A stretch of DNA of 6,460 bases from Zestosphaera tikiterensis. GTDB taxonomy: Archaea > Thermoproteota > Thermoprotei_A > Sulfolobales > NBVN01. The stretch is from contig NBVN01000016.1 of NCBI GenBank assembly GCA_003056265.1, positions 1-6,460 on the forward strand, written 5' to 3'. Below are positions 3 to 6,460 of this stretch, in pieces. Position 1 is the stretch's first letter; each line of letters opens with the position of its first letter. The position numbers and the translations under genes are program-made. The notes under the pieces were generated by a model. It saw only the letters and a program-made list of their open reading frames with translations. It ran no database searches and had not been told where the DNA came from.

Positions 3-782
3 GGCTACAACCCAGATAATCTTGTATCCGTCGACATTAACGAGAACAACGTAACTCTAGCAATTTTTAAGAATAGAACACTTGAGGAATTCGTCAGGAT
101 AGAGACAAAGCTCGGAAAGATCGTTATAGCATATTCCGAGAGGAGGAAGAGGATAGAGAAAGGTAAGTCAACCAAGACTAGAAGTGTAAGGAAAGCTTTA
201 AGAAAGCTTAAGGAAAGGAAAAGGAAGCTTGATATCATATATAAGGTGGCGAGGGTCATAGAAAACGTAGCTAGAATGTATAACGCTAGAGTTGTGGTTG
301 GTGATGTTTACGTTAATAAGGATGATATACTTGAGAAGGTTGTAGATGATAAGCTTAGACATAGAATACATCAGTGGAGCGTTTCTAAGTTGGTGGGCGT
401 TCTCAGTCAGAAGCCTCTGTATGTTGAGTGTGTGCCTGAAGAGGGTTCTTCCAATAGAGATCCGTTTAGAAAACGTAGAAAGCTTATGTATGCCTCCGCA
501 GTGATCCGTTTTGTGAAGGTGAGCGGGGGCTTTAGGAGAAGAGTTAAAGTTGAGAAAGCAACCTTAAGAACAGCAAGACTAAGTAATGGATGGATCCTAG
601 ATAGGGATATGGTTGGATCTCTAAACATAGGTCTTAAAGCCCTAAACTCAGATGGGAGCCCCATGGCGTTGGGCTCGACAGAGCCTCATGAAGTGCGGGC
701 GAAGCTAGTGAACCCGTACAGAGGGCTAACCCAGACCACGGAATTAAAAATATTAGGAATATTTAAGGGTACCGTGGTCTAG
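3..782 (+). CDS. tnpB: IS200/IS605-family TnpB (OrfB)-like protein, 5'-truncated by the window edge; apparently degenerate (RuvC-II Glu replaced by Gly, no zinc-ribbon cysteines)
   Basis: Frame 3 is open from nt 3 to TAG 780-782. The ORF-track entry 246..782 is only the part after an internal GTG. The translation GYNPDNLVSVDINENNVTLAIF...RKALRKLKERKRKLDIIYKVARVIENVARMYNARVVVGDV...LRHRIHQWSVSKLVGVLSQKPLYVECVPEEGSS...GWILDRDMVGSLNIGLKAL follows the TnpB/OrfB_IS605 layout. That layout is a RuvC-I block (vDiNe, Asp codon 33-35), a basic helical region, a RuvC-II strand (VVVGD, 291-305), and a C-terminal DRDxNAAxNI-like block (DRDMVGSLNI, 600-629). By-eye motif match only. Confidence 0.75.
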   Translation, partial: GYNPDNLVSVDINENNVTLAIFKNRTLEEFVRIETKLGKIVIAYSERRKRIEKGKSTKTRSVRKALRKLKERKRKLDIIYKVARVIENVARMYNARVVVGDVYVNKDDILEKVVDDKLRHRIHQWSVSKLVGVLSQKPLYVECVPEEGSSNRDPFRKRRKLMYASAVIRFVKVSGGFRRRVKVEKATLRTARLSNGWILDRDMVGSLNIGLKALNSDGSPMALGSTEPHEVRAKLVNPYRGLTQTTELKILGIFKGTVV

Positions 783-1204: not shown

Positions 1205-1387
1205 TCATCCAACTTCACCCACCTTCATCTCCAGAAGCCCGGCTTTTTCCAAATCCTCCCTTATTAAGCTTCGCAGGTAATCACTTACGCTTATGTAGCC
1301 CTTCATATCTATACGCCTTAGGATTAAAGACCTCCATTCAATAGGAACAACAAGACCTATATGCCACATCTTTTTTCTTTCTCTCAT
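1205..1387 (-). CDS. Ribbon-helix-helix (CopG/Arc/MetJ-like) DNA-binding protein, 60 aa
   Basis: MRERKKMWHIGLVVPIEWRSLILRRIDMKGYISVSDYLRSLIREDLEKAGLL shows the RHH pattern. This is an N-terminal beta-strand (HIGLVVP), helix 1 (EWRSLILRRID), a G-containing turn, and helix 2 with the typical S.S(D/E)YlR.lI signature. GGTG lies at 1399-1396, 8 nt upstream of ATG 1387-1385. A TATA box lies about 35 nt upstream. Confidence 0.75.
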   Translation of the reverse strand: MRERKKMWHIGLVVPIEWRSLILRRIDMKGYISVSDYLRSLIREDLEKAGLLEMKVGEVG

Positions 1388-1449: not shown

Positions 1450-2040
1450 TTAGAGTTCATCCTCGGAAGTCAGTAATACGTAGGTAGCGCCAGCAAGTAA
1501 AGCATTAATCGTGTTTAACGCCATAACCGTTAAGGGGTTTAAGAGAGTTGAAGTTAGGCTGTTTACGTGGTAGTACGTCCTACCGAAGTTTACCAAGCCT
1601 GCTGACGTATAGAATACGTTATCAACGCTTAACCCACTTACTTCAGTCGTTAAGATCCTAACTATTGAGAGTAGTAACGTACTCATGGCTACCGATGCTA
1701 AACCACCGCCTAAAAGCAACTCCACCGCCGAAAGTAAGGAGTTAAACTTCTTAAAAACATACGTTAGTAAGGCATAAGCTGAAGAAGCGATTAAAAACGT
1801 GGATAACATAAATAAAGGAATGGTTAAAACCCTCACAGCATCTAACGAAGCAACACGCACTACCTCACCATAGTAGCTCAGTAGATACCATAAGAGAGCG
1901 ACCTCACCCTCCACAACGCCGTGGAAACGGTAGATAGGCGTCACTACAGACGTTATTAACGTCAACCCTAAGAACGTAGCGGAAACGCAGGCCAGTATGT
2001 AAAGCACCTTAACCTTTGAAGTCAACCCTCCTCCTCTCAA
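1450..2040 (-). CDS. Polytopic integral membrane protein (about 5 predicted TM helices), last gene of the fibre operon; unknown family
   Basis: The 196-aa ORF is dominated by hydrophobic stretches (VLYILACVSATFLGLTLITSVV, VLTIPLFMLSTFLIASSAYALLTYVF, LLLGGGLASVAMSTLLLSIV, LTVMALNTINALLAGATYVLL). The start is uncertain. The track uses TTG 2040, which overlaps the upstream gene by 32 nt. TTG 2025-2023 directly follows GGAGGAGGG. GTG 2007-2005 begins 1 nt after the upstream TAA (2011-2009). All three options imply translational coupling to the peptidase gene. Confidence 0.7.
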   Translation of the reverse strand: MRGGGLTSKVKVLYILACVSATFLGLTLITSVVTPIYRFHGVVEGEVALLWYLLSYYGEVVRVASLDAVRVLTIPLFMLSTFLIASSAYALLTYVFKKFNSLLSAVELLLGGGLASVAMSTLLLSIVRILTTEVSGLSVDNVFYTSAGLVNFGRTYYHVNSLTSTLLNPLTVMALNTINALLAGATYVLLTSEDEL

Positions 2041-3139
2041 GAACTACCCCACCCCCGCCGTAAGGCCAGAACTTAAACTCGTATTTAAACTCTACGTAAG
2101 CATATCTACTGCCGTTTACAGGCATCACATCTATCGTTAAGGACTTCCCAGCCCCCACGACGTAATCGCTTAAGTACTCAATCTTCAAAACCTCAGGTGT
2201 GTTGAAGGGTTGCTTAACCCCCATGTAAATCACTTTAACTTCAGTTAAGTTGAATTGAATGTAGTTTGGGTTGTTAATAACTACTGAGTTGTTAATCACC
2301 GATACTTGAAGCGCCCTCCAGTTTATAGTGTATGAATACCTCCCCTCAACCCACCCCTTATCGAACGTTATGTTTAGCCTTAAGCTTACGTAAGTTATGT
2401 AGTTATTTGAAGCTCTATAGGCGTAGCTATACACCTCCCTAGGCACTTCAACAACAGCTACGGAACCCACTAAACGATGCGTTAAACATGGGAAGGTAGC
2501 GTTTAGTAAGGTAACCTCACATAAACTTACGTTTAGAGGCTCAGCGTTTTCAACTGTGAAGGTTAAGTAGACACTACCCCCATCTTTAGAGACTTCCATA
2601 CCCCTTAACTCAACCGAAGGCTTAATTAAAACCGTTGCCGGGCTGAAGTACTGAACACCCACTAAAAACACGGTAGCTATGTCAACGATCACGAAAAATA
2701 TGAATACTGCGTAAGCCACCCTCATCTCACCCGGCGTGATGGTCTTAAGCGTTGAGGCTATCTCCCTACGCTTCTTGAAGACGTAGAAAGCAGTTAATGC
2801 GAGGACAGCAGGAATCCAAAACTCACTAGGTATGTGGGACACGACCTTATACTTAACGAACGAAGCAGGTATTGAAGGATCTGGCAACGGGTTATTATCG
2901 CCTTTAGTTACTACATACCCTTCAGAAACGTTAACAACCCTATGTATAGTTCCATACGCTACCGTAGCATACCAAACAACAACATCACCAACCCCATAAC
3001 CACTTAAATACGTAGCAACACCTAAAACGAAATCCCCAGTCTTAAGAGTTGGAAGCATGGAATCCCCGGAAACCACGAAGAGAGCTACGGGAAACCAAAC
3101 CAACCTACCTAAAACAAGTGTGAGGACCGCTACCGCCAT
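2009..3139 (-). CDS. Type I signal peptidase, S26B (archaeal/ER Sec11 / Bacillus SipW type), fused to two further TM helices and an approximately 210-aa beta-rich extracellular C-terminal extension
   Basis: The N-terminal TM segment is followed by the S26 boxes. These are SGDSMLPTL (catalytic Ser codon 3061-3059), GDVVVW, GTIHRVV (a His rather than Lys general base, so S26B), and TKGDNNPLPD. Next come FWIPAVLALTAFYVF-KKRRE and VAYAVFIFFVIVDIATVFLVGV. After these is a Val/Asn/Tyr-rich region with six N-x-S/T sequons (NVS, NAT, NIT, NNS, NLT, NGS), with a seventh (NVS) in the peptidase domain, consistent with an exposed, glycosylated domain. Confidence 0.85.
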   Translation of the reverse strand: MAVAVLTLVLGRLVWFPVALFVVSGDSMLPTLKTGDFVLGVATYLSGYGVGDVVVWYATVAYGTIHRVVNVSEGYVVTKGDNNPLPDPSIPASFVKYKVVSHIPSEFWIPAVLALTAFYVFKKRREIASTLKTITPGEMRVAYAVFIFFVIVDIATVFLVGVQYFSPATVLIKPSVELRGMEVSKDGGSVYLTFTVENAEPLNVSLCEVTLLNATFPCLTHRLVGSVAVVEVPREVYSYAYRASNNYITYVSLRLNITFDKGWVEGRYSYTINWRALQVSVINNSVVINNPNYIQFNLTEVKVIYMGVKQPFNTPEVLKIEYLSDYVVGAGKSLTIDVMPVNGSRYAYVEFKYEFKFWPYGGGGVVLERRRVDFKG

Positions 3140-3210
3140 AAGGTAATCAAGTCTTAAAGTCTTCAGGCCTCAGCACCTTCCCGACATAATTTAATAACTT
3201 AAGCATGATT

Positions 3211-5279
3211 TTAAACACTAACCTCTAAAAGAACGTAATCTAGGTAAAGCCGGTAATCTAGGTCTGTATTGCCTTTCGAAGATATGTTAACTTGAATTAC
3301 GGCGAGGTATTCGTTACTGAATTCCAGTAGGTCTGAAGGGATTGCGTAGCTATATACGTCGTAAGAACTTGACGGCGTTAAAGAAGCACTCCACACTATG
3401 CTGCCGTTGCTTAAGTCAATTATGGATATGGTTAAGCTCTGACTGCTTAACTGACCTTCCGGTTGCGCTTCATATCTACACCTAACTTCAAGCTTAAGGT
3501 CCCCGGCAATCCTAGGAGCTGTGAACACTTGCTGAATTAAAGCTACGTCGCCGCCGACCCCCTTAGGTAGTGTACCGTTTAGAAGGGCTACACCGCCTAA
3601 TGCTTGAAGGTCTGTTGAGGAAACCCACTTCAAGTAAGTACCGCTTACTACCTCCCAATGGCTTAGGGATTCGTTGAAATCATAATTCAAAAGCAATTGA
3701 GCGGGGACTACCTCATCGAGGTACCCGCTTTCATCCCCTAGAGCTTCAGACTCGCTATAAGGTTCGTAGGAGGTTTCCGAAGGGTTGGTTGCGGGTTGAG
3801 GTTCAGCATAGCTTAAGGTTGGGTCGGGGTCAATAAGCTGTATGGTTAACGGGTATATAACGCAGGCGCCGACGTAGTTAGGACCGCCTACACATCCGAT
3901 AACTTTCAATACTAAAGTGGAGGTTGATCCCGATGAAGCGTAAGCGCTTCCAACGACTACGTGTTTAGTAGAGCTAGACGGTAGAAACACCCAATCAGTA
4001 GAGGTTGAGGTAGGGGCGCCGTTCACGATCGTTATCTTTTGTGAATTGCCTTCAACGTATATCTCTGCGTTAAGGCTTGAATCTATGGTTGATGAGCCTA
4101 CGTCAAGCTCAAGCATTAAGTAATAATTCTGAGTGGCTGTTAAGTCGACTGCGTAGAACGAGGTTAAAGCGTTAGAACTCGACGAAACGTATGCGGTTAC
4201 GACCGCGTTAGTTCCCGTAGGACCTATAGACGTGGATAGCGTATGTGTGTTAAGGCTGTAGTTATCGCCGCCTAGGAAAGCATCGCTAGTGGGTATTGAT
4301 GCATTCAGACAGAGAAGGCTCCCGTCCGGGTAGGCTATCCTTATATTGCCGTCGCTACCCGTACCCAGAACTACATCTGGAGTAACGCTTAGGCTGTACG
4401 TGCTTGATGTAGCCGTGAAGCTGTATGTAAGCGTGCCGAGGTTGTCGTAGATGTTGAATATCAGCCCGCTCCGAAGATTTGTGAAAGTTACGGTTCTGGG
4501 ATCCCTAGTTGAGATTATGAAGTCGTCGAACCTACCGTAGTTGCCGTCCACCTCAAGACCTATGTAGGCTGGAGTAAACCTTCTTGCTGATGTGCTACTC
4601 GCCGTTAAGTATGCCACTTGATTGCCGTTGGGGTCATAGACCCACACATAGAAGTTCACAGCTGTTGTCGTAGCAACGTAGTTCAGCACTATAGTGTACC
4701 AGTAGCCGGAGTTAAAACTGCTGAAGGCGGCACTACCTAATTGACTCCAACCACCGGCCCTTTCAACGTTGTAACTCCGTACATAAATCACGTTGTTGTA
4801 TATCGATATCTCGTAGAGCCTATTCGTTCCGGAGTTAATCAGGGCTAAACCTTTATATGTAGTAGTCGGTGAGCCGTAGACCTTCAGAGTCACCCACAGA
4901 GATGTGTATGTAGTGTCCAACCTAGTGTTGTAGTAGTACTGTGAAGCCCCGCCGATGCCTCCACCGTTGTCGCTGTACTGGAGTGCGTTGCCTTTATGAC
5001 CACCGGATACTATGGAGGTTGTCCCGCCCCTGCTAGCCCACCCACTTGGAAGACTCTCGAAGTCTGTGTACGTTACAGCACCTCTATAGGTTCTCACTAG
5101 TGCTATGCATGTGTAGCTGTAGGGTGGATTAGTAAATGTGAGTGTGGGGTTAACCCCCCGAGTATTCACGGAGGTAGGGTAGTAGGCGAATACGGAAGCA
5201 TAAACAGAAGGTATGATGAGGACTAGGAGCGACGTGACTAATATATAAAAAAACTTAGTTTCGGCTTAGGGTGTTTCAT
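3211..5279 (-). CDS. Large secreted multidomain protein (about 689 aa if joined): signal peptide, ConA/LamG-like lectin domain, Ser/Thr-rich beta region, acidic linker, CBM-like C-terminal beta-sandwich. It needs a -1 frameshift (or a T8 allele) at 5247-5253; candidate fibre-associated adhesin
   Basis: The track ORF 3211..5169 starts at an internal GTG. Its frame stays open upstream to 5265 and encodes KFFYILVTSLLVLIIPSVYASVFAYYPTS, a signal-peptide-like core, but has no ATG/GTG/TTG there. ATG 5279-5277 is preceded by GGTGA (5291-5287, 6-nt spacer) and opens MKHPKPKLSFF in the other frame. It meets the long frame inside a T7 run. Domain calls are by eye. The lectin-like part reads FESLPSGW..GNALQ..YWYTIVLNY..FYVWVYDPNGN..IGLEVDGNYGRFDDFII. 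The linker reads DPDPTLSYAEPQPATNPSETSYEPYSESEALGDESGYLDEVVP (3706-3831). The C-terminal part reads NYDFNESLSHWEVV...LYLDYVLLEVSV. Confidence 0.8.
5247..5253 (-). other. Homopolymer T7 (A7 on the + strand), equivalent to the slippery heptamer U UUU UUU at the junction of the two reading frames of the large secreted protein gene
   Basis: Read directly. Frame A (from ATG 5279) reads AGT TTT TTT ATA TAT TAG. Frame B (the long ORF) reads AAG TTT TTT TAT ATA TTA. A -1 slip on the T run, or one extra T, fuses them. Confidence 0.7.
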
Positions 5280-5294
5280 TCTTGCTCACCATTA

Positions 5295-5927
5295 TTAAGG
5301 TGGCTCAGTATTCTGCGGGCTGTATATCAATTCCAGAACTGCTGTATCGCTTACTGAGCCTGCGTTAACGTTTCTATCTATCTGTATCTCTATGTCTATA
5401 TATAGCTTTCCGGGCGTAATAACTGTATTACCATTCTGGTCAGTTGTCTGAGTAGCTTTGGGAATCGTGATGTAGTTTGGATAGGCTGGCTGTATCGTAT
5501 TTGATTTGAGGTCTATTGTAGCTATGGCAACATTTGGAGGATCTTTAGGCGAAGTCTTTATGTACAGCGTGGCTGAGATTATGTATTGGTTAGATATGGG
5601 TGTATTGACCTTTATCCACGCGTAGTAGTACCTGTTGACTCCGTGGTTCTCTATCCCTAAGACGTCCCTGTAGTATGTTTTCTCGTTTGTCGGGTGTATA
5701 GTTATGGTGGCTTTAGTGTTGTAGCTACCATCTAAGTTTACAGTTATTGTTCGACTGGCTAAATCGCTTTTACCAGCGTTGCTACCTACTGCGAACCTGA
5801 CCTCAGCTTCGGTGCCGCTAATGTTCACAGTTAGCCCGTAGTAGACGAAGACGCTGGCGTTTACCACAGCTACGGCTACAGCTAAAGCCACTAGCACTAA
5901 CAACGTTCTTTTCTGCTTTCCATTCAT
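5295..5927 (-). CDS. Secreted TasA/camelysin-like (archaeal bundling pilin AbpA-like) fibre subunit candidate, 210 aa; first gene of the operon
   Basis: The N-terminus MNGKQKRTLLVLVALAVAVAVVNASVFVYYG has a basic n-region, a hydrophobic core, and then an A-S-V-F-V-Y-Y segment. That segment resembles the G-T-(F/W)-A-x-F segment of SipW-dependent signal peptides in TasA-family proteins. The mature part is an all-beta-looking, Thr/Asn/Ile-rich domain of about 180 aa with no Cys. It sits in one operon with a SipW-type peptidase. The fold assignment is an inference from context and N-terminal pattern, not from an alignment. Confidence 0.6.
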   Translation of the reverse strand: MNGKQKRTLLVLVALAVAVAVVNASVFVYYGLTVNISGTEAEVRFAVGSNAGKSDLASRTITVNLDGSYNTKATITIHPTNEKTYYRDVLGIENHGVNRYYYAWIKVNTPISNQYIISATLYIKTSPKDPPNVAIATIDLKSNTIQPAYPNYITIPKATQTTDQNGNTVITPGKLYIDIEIQIDRNVNAGSVSDTAVLELIYSPQNTEPP

Positions 5928-5961: not shown

Positions 5962-5970
5962 TTTATAAAA
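5962..5970 (-). promoter_or_regulatory. TATA box (minus-strand TTTTATAAA) for the fibre operon
   Basis: Its downstream (3') end at 5962 lies 35 nt upstream of ATG 5927 (43 nt from the 5' end at 5970). No SD motif lies in between, which fits a short-leader or leaderless first gene, as is usual in Crenarchaeota. The element is near-palindromic, so direction rests on spacing only. Confidence 0.4.
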
Positions 5971-6070: not shown

Positions 6071-6077
6071 ATGCCTC

Positions 6078-6460
6078 ATGGTTAAAGGTTATGTTGTAAA
6101 ACGTGAAGAAGAGGCGGAGCCGACACCACCTGAGGAAAGAGAGAAACTTGAAATTAGGAGGCTTCCTACAGGGTTGAAGCTACTTGATGAAGGTCTCGAA
6201 GGCGGTATCCCAATCGGTGCCTGGGTGGTCATCTCGGGGGAGCCCGGAACAGGTAAGACCGTCCTCACCCAGCATGTAGCGATGACAGCGCTTGAGAACG
6301 ACTACAGGGTTGTCGTAGTTTCTACCGAGCTTAAGAAGTGGGAGTGGTTGACACAGGCGAAAGGCTTAGGACTTAACGTTGATAAATACCCAATCGTGAG
6401 GTTAAGGGATATCATAGAGTTCAACAAGGAGAAGAACGAATACTACGTAGCACTAGACAA
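6078..6460 (+). CDS. KaiC/RadA(RecA)-superfamily ATPase, 3'-truncated by the window edge
   Basis: It is open from ATG 6078 to the window end and is absent from the ORF track because there is no stop codon. The translation MVKGYVVKREEEAEPTPPEEREKLEIRRLPTGLKLLDEGLEGGIPIGAWVVISGEPGTGKTVLTQHVAMTALENDYRVVVVSTE is the canonical KaiC-like N-terminus. It shows (R)lpTGi..LD..L.GGip.G....i.G.PGTGKT, with Walker A GEPGTGKT at 6237-6260. Confidence 0.85.
   Translation, partial: MVKGYVVKREEEAEPTPPEEREKLEIRRLPTGLKLLDEGLEGGIPIGAWVVISGEPGTGKTVLTQHVAMTALENDYRVVVVSTELKKWEWLTQAKGLGLNVDKYPIVRLRDIIEFNKEKNEYYVALD

Follow-up and report, generated by a model that had tools for sequence, protein, structure and literature searches.

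The stretch of DNA considered here, hereafter the window, makes up one entire 6460-bp contig in the metagenome-assembled genome (MAG) of Zestosphaera tikiterensis. It carries four minus-strand genes (g1 to g4) which, in our reading, encode both a thread-type surface fibre of the Saci_0406 family, within the TasA superfamily, and a dedicated module for processing and assembling it (probability of about 0.7). The first gene, g1 (5295..5927, minus strand; PUA31283.1, B7O98_09575), encodes the putative major fibre subunit of 210 aa. The second, g2, is split between two frames: a 0-frame leader of 13 codons (MKHPKPKLSFFIY) plus a TAG stop (5238..5279, minus strand), which holds a run of seven T residues (T7; 5247..5253, minus strand) in the phase U_UUU_UUU, and a body of 684 codons in the -1 frame (3211..5265, minus strand) for a putative minor or tip (adhesin) subunit. 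The third, g3 (2009..3139, minus strand; PUA31281.1 at 100% identity), encodes 376 aa, with a membrane anchor and S26B signal peptidase domain (Ser27, His66, GDNN) in its N-terminal part (2828..3139, minus strand), and with helices 105-159 followed by predicted tandem beta-sandwich ectodomains (aa ~175-373) in its C-terminal part (2009..2827, minus strand). The fourth, g4 (1450..2040, minus strand; PUA31280.1), encodes a four-pass membrane protein of 196 aa.

A previous examination of the same letters without database searches (the sequence-only reading) had described four tightly spaced, co-directional genes behind one TATA box, and this layout stands. The g2 ATG lies 15 nt past the g1 stop, the g3 start 71 nt past the g2 stop, and g3 and g4 overlap by 32 nt, while a TATA-like box (TTTTATAAA), read from the sequence and with a putative promoter role, is present at 5970-5962 (5962..5970, minus strand), 35-43 nt 5′ of the g1 ATG, in a 147-nt divergent intergenic region common to g1 and a KaiC-like gene. 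Rfam and tRNA scans of the window gave no RNA genes. For comparison, hidden Markov models (HMMs) from g1, g3 and g4 were used to scan 120 sources, comprising the window and a set of metagenome and GTDB-genome loci, which are designated below by L numbers.

A predicted fibre subunit of the thread family

The small all-beta protein that had been noticed in g1 is confirmed by an AlphaFold2 (AF2) model composed of one N-terminal helix and 12 strands (predicted local distance difference test, pLDDT, 93.2; predicted template modelling score 0.80), where residues 23-42 form no strand and stay unstructured ahead of the head domain. The protein carries a Sec-type (signal peptidase I, SPase-I) signal peptide with predicted cleavage between VNA and SVFVYYG, and the mature N-terminus that would result is a putative donor strand. 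In the family the motif (V)NA-SVFVYYP comes right after the hydrophobic region, and F27, Y29 and Y30 are invariant in 46 homologs.

Among solved structures, the best Foldseek match of the g1 model is AbpA of the Pyrobaculum calidifontis bundling pilus (7ueg_A, E 1.2e-6, TM-score 0.65), followed by the Sulfolobus acidocaldarius thread subunit (7pnb_A, E 2e-6, TM-score 0.62), and then by the Hyper2 tube and a cannulae fibre, with bacterial type 1 pilins weakly behind. These top four matches are all donor-strand filaments. In the PDB sequences, the g1 family profile found a sole match, the thread subunit Saci_0406 (7pnb_A), with E 6.6e-8 over positions 2-188 of 189, and in this alignment LVA followed by DVIYYYQGQITV stands opposite VNA followed by SVFVYYPITINI. 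The reverse search agrees, the g1 HMM matching the S. acidocaldarius thread gene with E 1e-10 to 5e-12. The fold matches, together with the full-length sequence match to Saci_0406, identify g1, at the level of homology and modelled structure, as a thread-family subunit, and its predicted fold places it in the class of fibres assembled by donor-strand complementation. The family is a small one: clustering at 50% identity gives 186 clusters in a set of 1.84 billion proteins.

The sequence-only reading had proposed a fibre of the TasA/AbpA type. The AbpA-like fold that it anticipated is indeed the one that the model takes, and the broad donor-strand class is upheld by both the AbpA and the thread folds, but the TasA half of the proposal is not: g1 has no Pfam match to PF12389 (Peptidase_M73) at E<=1, TasA is missing from the top 50 Foldseek matches, and the nearest family is the thread. 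The likeness to AbpA is one of fold only, as the g1 profile finds no AbpA (7UEG) match among PDB sequences at E<=10. Pfam and NCBIfam scans assigned g1 to no significant family, and a type IV pilin of the UpsA kind was rejected, both on score (NF046073 UpsA, 19 bits, E 1e-3, against a cut-off of 130) and on the folds, which are those of donor-strand fibres.

A larger secreted partner with the same N-terminal module

The families of g2 and g1 align with 98% probability in hhalign (E 3e-13, 64 columns), and all their members have in common an N-terminal module made of a signal peptide, an [S/A]VFxYYP strand and the first strands of the fold. Beyond it, g2 proteins share a C-terminal domain of ~120 aa and vary in the middle. 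The body of the window g2 runs from the hydrophobic (h) region through the strand SVFAYYP, a core of ~478 aa and a Pro/Ser/Glu-rich linker to an extra C-terminal domain of ~200 aa. The core, which is common to homologs of ~500 aa, is 56% identical to L006 and 47% to L022, and the extra domain is found near the N-terminus in other loci.

The motifs of g1 and g2 also agree within loci (e.g., AAFAYRW with SIFTYRW in L008), and a shuffle test of this co-variation gave a slight excess, 3.64 versus 3.09 identities in 7, a value reached in 29 of 10000 shuffles; we give it little weight, for the motif registers are noisy and the sequences related. On the grounds of a signal peptide and a post-cleavage SVFxYYP strand in common with g1, and by analogy with TapA, Saci_0405, AbpB and the AbpX tip proteins, g2 is probably a minor or tip subunit giving the same strand to g1. 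The label “lectin-like” that it had previously received finds no significant support: the window g2 has no Pfam, NCBIfam or PDB sequence match, the g2 family profile has no match in PDB sequences either, and the sole hints of a lectin are Laminin_G_3 at E 0.01 in one homolog and an FDDF-type motif picked out by eye.

A signal peptidase with an ectodomain and its membrane partner

The S26B peptidase with catalytic Ser and His boxes that had been read in g3 scores above the curated cut-off of TIGR02228 (55.0 versus 51.85 bits). The best solved relatives of the g3 family profile are human SEC11A (E 3.8e-7) and SEC11C, and in an alignment of 31 homologs S27 is nearly invariant, whereas H66, R67, G80, D81 and N83 (the GDNN box) are invariant. 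By sequence, g3 is an archaeal/ER-type signal peptidase I (S26B) with Ser27 and His66 as catalytic residues. As a side observation on its start, the g3 frame is open for 10 codons 5′ of its ATG (GLKTLRLDYL; 3139-3169, minus strand), which align with the start MKYLDYIALG of L005; the window copy has lost that L005-type ATG, and its start falls 7 codons further on, bordering a region of high identity to L005.

In the AF2 model of g3 (pLDDT 88.7) the peptidase (aa 1-104) is followed by helices 105-159, predicted as two membrane passes, and by two beta-sandwich domains (175-373), with a pLDDT >95 at aa 180-350. The fusion of the peptidase to an extracellular domain, as formerly suggested, thus reappears as tandem beta-sandwich ectodomains, which would lie outside the cell because of a KKRRE loop past helix 105-122 and seven N-x-S/T sequons (glycosylation). 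The ectodomain has no Pfam match, and its Foldseek matches are tandem Ig/FnIII proteins (E ~1e-4, TM-score 0.14-0.33). Among them are the pilus chaperones PapD, FimC, DraB, Caf1M and CupB2 (E 9e-5 to 5e-4, TM-score 0.14-0.32, root-mean-square deviation >14 Å), and cytokine receptors, RbmA and a transglutaminase score equally well. A chaperone-like role is accordingly a hypothesis drawn from the model, which the comparison could not separate from generic tandem Ig-like similarity.

The polytopic membrane protein announced for g4 is recovered as four hydrophobic segments in its hydropathy profile. It belongs to no Pfam or NCBIfam family, and DUF5305 is absent from both g3 and g4 in a Pfam scan at E<=1.

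Conservation of the gene arrangement

Homologs of the four genes are syntenic in other genomes. In 47 of the 50 loci having at least 3 kb past g1, g3 lies downstream of g1 on the same strand, the three exceptions being L072 and the pair L003 and L004, in which g2-g3-g4 are convergent with g1; g4 is present in 36 of the 38 loci that reach far enough, and always adjoins g3. This g1-(g2)-g3-g4 arrangement is far beyond chance. It occurs in Desulfurococcales, in two complete genomes of cultured Thermogladius (NZ_CP151274 and NZ_CP196893), which have g1, g3 and g4 but no g2, in MAGs of Sulfolobales and Acidilobaceae, in Ignisphaera and in Brockarchaeota. The second gene is optional, and ~9 loci run straight from g1 to g3.

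Some of these loci deserve a comment of their own. In L003 and L004 (8593-15084), the operon that faces g1 in convergent orientation encodes proteins of 1121 aa and of 481 aa, the latter g2-like (GASLFVTYS), as well as g3 and g4; upstream there are two Csx3-domain genes and a MoxR/VWA pair. Two loci devoid of g2, L032 (3138-5246) and L034 (9555-11621), have an open reading frame (ORF) of ~700 aa matched by the g4 model, which points to a fusion of g4 with a large additional domain.

Elsewhere in the same Zestosphaera MAG, a 644-kb contig carries another thread-type locus (B7O98_04500-04510), which is also found as the Joint Genome Institute (JGI) contig L005. Comparing positions 1450-3110 and 5830-5927 of the window with 3163-4828 and 1460-1557 of L005, the two loci show 96.4% nucleotide identity over g3 and g4 and 85% over the g1 signal peptide, with no detectable DNA similarity in the mature part of g1 or in g2, and with different flanking genes. 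The picture resembles that of a cassette swap, or of two paralogous loci whose machinery has become homogenised.

A conserved frame break in the signal peptide of g2

The sequence-only reading had taken the second gene for a single intact one encoding a large secreted protein, which is not what the frames show. The ATG at 5279 follows a Shine-Dalgarno-like GGTGA, and its frame ends after 13 codons at a TAG stop (5240-5238), whereas the body occupies the -1 frame, with its first canonical start (GTG 5169) downstream of the signal peptide and its end at 3211. A non-canonical start in the body frame was considered and discarded, since the stretch from the upstream TAA to the cleavage motif contains no ATG, GTG or TTG. 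Either a -1 slip or one added U/T at the T7 tract fuses the leader to the body, giving MKHPKPKLSFFYILVTSLLVLIIPSVYA directly followed by SVFAYYP. A -1 slip on U_UUU_UUU yields MKHPKPKLSFFYILV..., in agreement with the in-frame reading KPKQFFYLSS of L006, and the predicted mature N-terminus of the product is SVFAYYPTSVNTR....

The break is shared by the window and L001, L002, L005 and L006, which come from the NCBI MAG and three JGI samples. Across these five loci the identity of g1 and g2 is 56-70%, or the domain type is a different one, while the ORFs past the break are intact and the leaders differ by exactly 3 nt. The break recurs in other clades, in L016, L020, L021, L023, L036, L067 and L084, and in L022, L074, L107, L070, L112 and L102; tract and frame relation are thus the same in ~12 more diverged loci. 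There are ~17 distinct loci of the -1 type versus 2 of the +1 type. The layout of the -1 type is GGTGA, an ATG, a short 0-frame leader with Lys/Arg, a T6-T8 run, a stop 0-8 codons further on, and the body in the -1 frame. An in-phase heptamer (U_UUU_UUU, U_UUU_UUC, U_UUU_UUA or C_CCU_UUU) is present in these ~17 diverged loci. Judged from the sequences, a recoding or phase-variation switch at the T tract of g2 is possible, and it could act by ribosomal slip, by transcriptional slip or by phase variation.

Relation to known fibre systems

The closest characterised relative is the S. acidocaldarius thread (Saci_0406; 7PNB, 8RZL; PMC9715654), to which g1 is homologous by sequence and fold. Both subunits have an SPase-I signal peptide and then an aromatic strand, with DVIYYY after LVA in the thread and SVFVYY after VNA in g1. 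The thread locus, like the window, has a downstream secreted partner with the same kind of motif, a 442-aa protein (...TSASVYYFF) that starts ...VITSASVYYFFQAQLIF, and g2 shows no sequence similarity to it past the motif. Inspection of the two S. acidocaldarius loci (L038, 9168-10496; L039, 9173-10507) gives a protein of 442-444 aa with a signal peptide and then SASVYYFFQAQLIF, preceded by a 131-aa (or 74-aa) ORF with a 4-nt overlap. Its stretch ADGFEIYFF may be akin to legume lectins, and the protein could serve the thread as a donor-strand partner that has so far gone unrecognised. A search of these two loci up to 8 kb away on each side detected no homolog of g3 or g4, even at E<=10. In the literature, saci_0404, 0407 and 0408 were called elusive, and a generic peptidase was assumed for the thread (PMC9715654, PMC11607397).

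The haloarchaeal Tat-fimbriae (Tafi) resemble the window in being a donor-strand fibre with a dedicated S26 peptidase, a membrane accessory and variable tip or minor subunits (PMC11821415, PMC12337348), and, there as here, conserved enzymes go with variable structural genes. The system comprises the pilins TafA/E/C, the peptidase TafD and the DUF5305 protein TafG (PMC11821415, PMC12337348). TafD has four transmembrane helices and a C-terminal ectodomain (PMC11821415, PMC12337348), and its deletion abolishes tafi (PMC11821415); in its AF2 model g3 likewise has extra membrane helices and a C-terminal extracellular domain, a likeness at the level of architecture. However, Tafi pilins are a different subfamily, mostly Tat-exported, and the Tafi accessory domain DUF5305 was not found in g3 or g4. 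Moreover, the Tafi authors described the thread and archaeal bundling pilus clusters as having no tafD and tafG homologs (PMC11821415, PMC12337348).

The logic of the Bacillus subtilis tapA-sipW-tasA operon is also that of the window, with a major subunit, a larger low-abundance partner and a dedicated ER-type peptidase (PMC9674648, PMC10151520). TasA and TapA are both substrates of SipW, and an N-terminal strand of TapA complements TasA (PMC9245690, PMC10151520). An S26B Ser/His peptidase is likewise encoded beside the fibre genes in 47/50 of our loci, but a tandem beta-sandwich ectodomain is absent from SipW, as is a four-pass partner from the B. subtilis operon, and g1 matches TasA neither in profile nor in fold, as described above, which leaves the superfamily-level link that the literature makes between threads and TasA (bioRxiv 10.64898/2026.01.04.697558). 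In P. calidifontis (AbpA/AbpB; 7UEG; PMC9245690), whose AbpA is the best fold match of g1 and not a sequence-level one, the abp operon similarly has a larger secreted partner, as well as several four-pass membrane proteins, and no dedicated peptidase was found nearby (PMC9245690). A TasA superfamily with threads among its members is defined in a 2026 preprint, which also describes a set of AbpX loci with a tip protein, a minor subunit, an SPase I of ten transmembrane helices and a DUF5305 accessory; another locus of Zestosphaera tikiterensis belongs to this set (bioRxiv 10.64898/2026.01.04.697558). The AbpX loci and the window agree in organism, superfamily and general layout, but their Zestosphaera proteins (A0A2R7Y7S4, Y7T0 and Y9R0) are different from those of the window (A0A2R7Y1E9, Y168 and Y160).

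The statement that such an architecture matches no characterised system is therefore out of date: dedicated peptidases are known for Tafi, AbpX and TasA fibres, and the Tafi and AbpX loci already display this type of architecture. What is new is the combination of a thread-type subunit, a peptidase fused to tandem beta-sandwiches, a four-pass partner other than DUF5305 and the T-tract device. For the latter, a precedent exists in another crenarchaeon, Saccharolobus solfataricus, whose fucA1 uses -1 frameshifting (PMC1616953) and is the only proven archaeal -1 frameshift (PMC8211752). Both genes are split between the 0 and -1 frames at a homopolymeric X_XXY_YYZ heptamer, but the fucA1 site (A_AAA_AAT) has been proven by experiment and interrupts the enzyme's own coding sequence (PMC1616953, PMC8211752), whereas the g2 site (U_UUU_UUU) is putative, lies inside a signal peptide and has a tract length that is polymorphic in one clade.

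A model for processing and assembly

In the model that we propose, g1 as the major subunit and g2 as the minor or tip subunit would leave the cell by the Sec pathway, and g3, through Ser27 and His66, would cleave both of them past the h-region, freeing the N-terminal [S/A]VFxYYP strand. Polymerisation would then proceed by donor-strand complementation, with each freed strand entering the groove of a neighbour. Given that g2 offers the same strand and carries large extra domains, it would be expected to end or start the fibre, where it could present binding domains. The tandem beta-sandwich ectodomain of g3 and the four-pass g4 might hold or anchor the freshly cut subunits at the membrane. Finally, g2 would be made only upon a one-base slip of the ribosome or the RNA polymerase at T7, or upon a change in tract length, which would keep it rare relative to g1, or switchable.

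Several observations weigh against this model, or against parts of it. A filament, the cleavage and the g2 protein have so far not been observed in Zestosphaera. The first mature residue of g1 is Ser or Ala in the family alignment, and not the conserved Asp24 that has been proposed to form the intersubunit isopeptide bond of the thread. The threads of S. acidocaldarius form with neither g3 nor g4 in the locus, and therefore these two genes are not universally needed. The matches of the g3 ectodomain are generic tandem Ig-like folds with low TM-scores, and g2 is missing in L018, L025, L032 and L034. Regarding the T tract, ~35 loci have g2 in frame, two loci need the opposite (+1) shift, the L022 clade contains T7, T8, T9 and deletion variants, and the 97 nt of RNA after T7 fold no better than shuffled sequences (z +0.99).

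The last three of these points are also those expected from phase variation at the DNA level, in which slipped-strand mispairing would set the g2 adhesin ON (T8) or OFF (T7) in subpopulations, with no recoding at all. Closely related contigs of the L022 clade show T7 (L116), T8 (seven loci), T9 in frame (L098) or no tract (L108), the loci of opposite shift are L048 and L096, and no frameshift-stimulating structure was found past the tract. However, the five diverged Zestosphaera-type loci are all OFF and none ON, seventeen loci of the -1 type face two of the +1 type, and the tract is merely 6-8 nt long, and we regard phase variation as a possible but somewhat doubtful explanation.

That g2 is an inactivated pseudogene in this Zestosphaera strain, leaving the locus to make a homopolymeric g1 fibre, seems improbable to us. 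Its reading frame is certainly interrupted, Thermogladius and other loci do without any g2, and the NCBI record has no protein with the exact sequence of the g2 ORF. Nevertheless, a frame of 684 codons is still open, and the break is common to loci whose g2 has diverged to 56% identity or to another domain type with the bodies intact; that bodies so long are preserved behind a break that is both old and shared speaks against a pseudogene and implies that the body has been under selection since the break arose.

Less plausible still is that g1 is a monomeric surface or S-layer-associated beta-sandwich protein, and g3 a second housekeeping signal peptidase. The g1 family has no experimental filament, and jelly-roll folds are common in lectins and capsids, which appear among the lower Foldseek matches. 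Against this stand the full-length match to a thread subunit, including the aromatic strand that follows the cleavage site, the four best fold matches, all of them donor-strand filaments, and both the strict linkage to g3/g4 and the N-terminal module in common with g2, which argue for a dedicated system. Lastly, a homopolymer error in sequencing or assembly hiding a true T8 is very unlikely. Homopolymers are error-prone on some platforms, and part of the JGI hot-spring data may be old, but independent assemblies carry the same break, with the same T7 in the NCBI MAG contig and in contigs of JGI samples 3300005800, 3300005801 and 3300020567, all of which differ at many other positions.

Flanking genes

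Divergent from g1, a KaiC/ArlH-like P-loop ATPase gene (6075-6460, plus strand) is cut by the contig end, leaving its N-terminal 128 aa (TIGR03881, E 1e-19). It was considered as a motor and rejected: L001, a near-identical contig, is the only other place where it adjoins g1, and in the remaining loci, whose neighbours are different, it is unlinked to g1. Beyond it, L001 has a Zn_Ribbon_TF gene (a weak Pfam match) and a gene with Intein_splicing and weak DUF87 matches. At the other side of the window lie a 178-aa fragment akin to the C-terminal part of an IS200/IS605 TnpB (246-782, plus strand; TIGR01766, E 1e-5) and a 60-aa ORF (1205-1387, minus strand) that has a TATA-like box to itself and gives a weak match of the NikR-like (ribbon-helix-helix) type. 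This mobile-element remnant at the contig edge may be the reason why the locus assembled as a separate small contig.

Implications for archaeal threads

Threads are one of four surface filaments of Sulfolobus, and the machinery that assembles them has been described as elusive. Outside this genus, the thread subunit is nearly always linked to a fusion of a peptidase with an ectodomain and to a four-pass membrane protein, which makes g3 and g4 concrete candidates for the processing and assembly of threads, and ties these filaments to the operon logic of Tafi, AbpX and TasA. The conserved T tract of g2 offers, in turn, a tractable archaeal case of recoding or phase variation.

A bolder proposal, which we put forward tentatively and consider rather unlikely to hold in full, joins a programmed -1 slip for g2 with g3/g4 as the missing assembly platform of thread-type fibres. 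If it were true, a conserved -1 slip on a U tract, ribosomal or transcriptional, would fix a low ratio of tip to shaft, and g2 would join a single other frameshift-dependent gene known in Archaea, with no earlier case in a surface-appendage operon. The products of g3 and g4 would link the cleavage step with capture of the strand, thereby acting as the archaeal equivalent, in minimal form, of a pilus chaperone.

Finally, the presence in one genome of machinery 96% identical and of unrelated fibre genes points to a rapid exchange of the exposed parts of these filaments, under a pressure that, speculatively, may come from viruses or from the nanoarchaeal symbiont of Zestosphaera tikiterensis.

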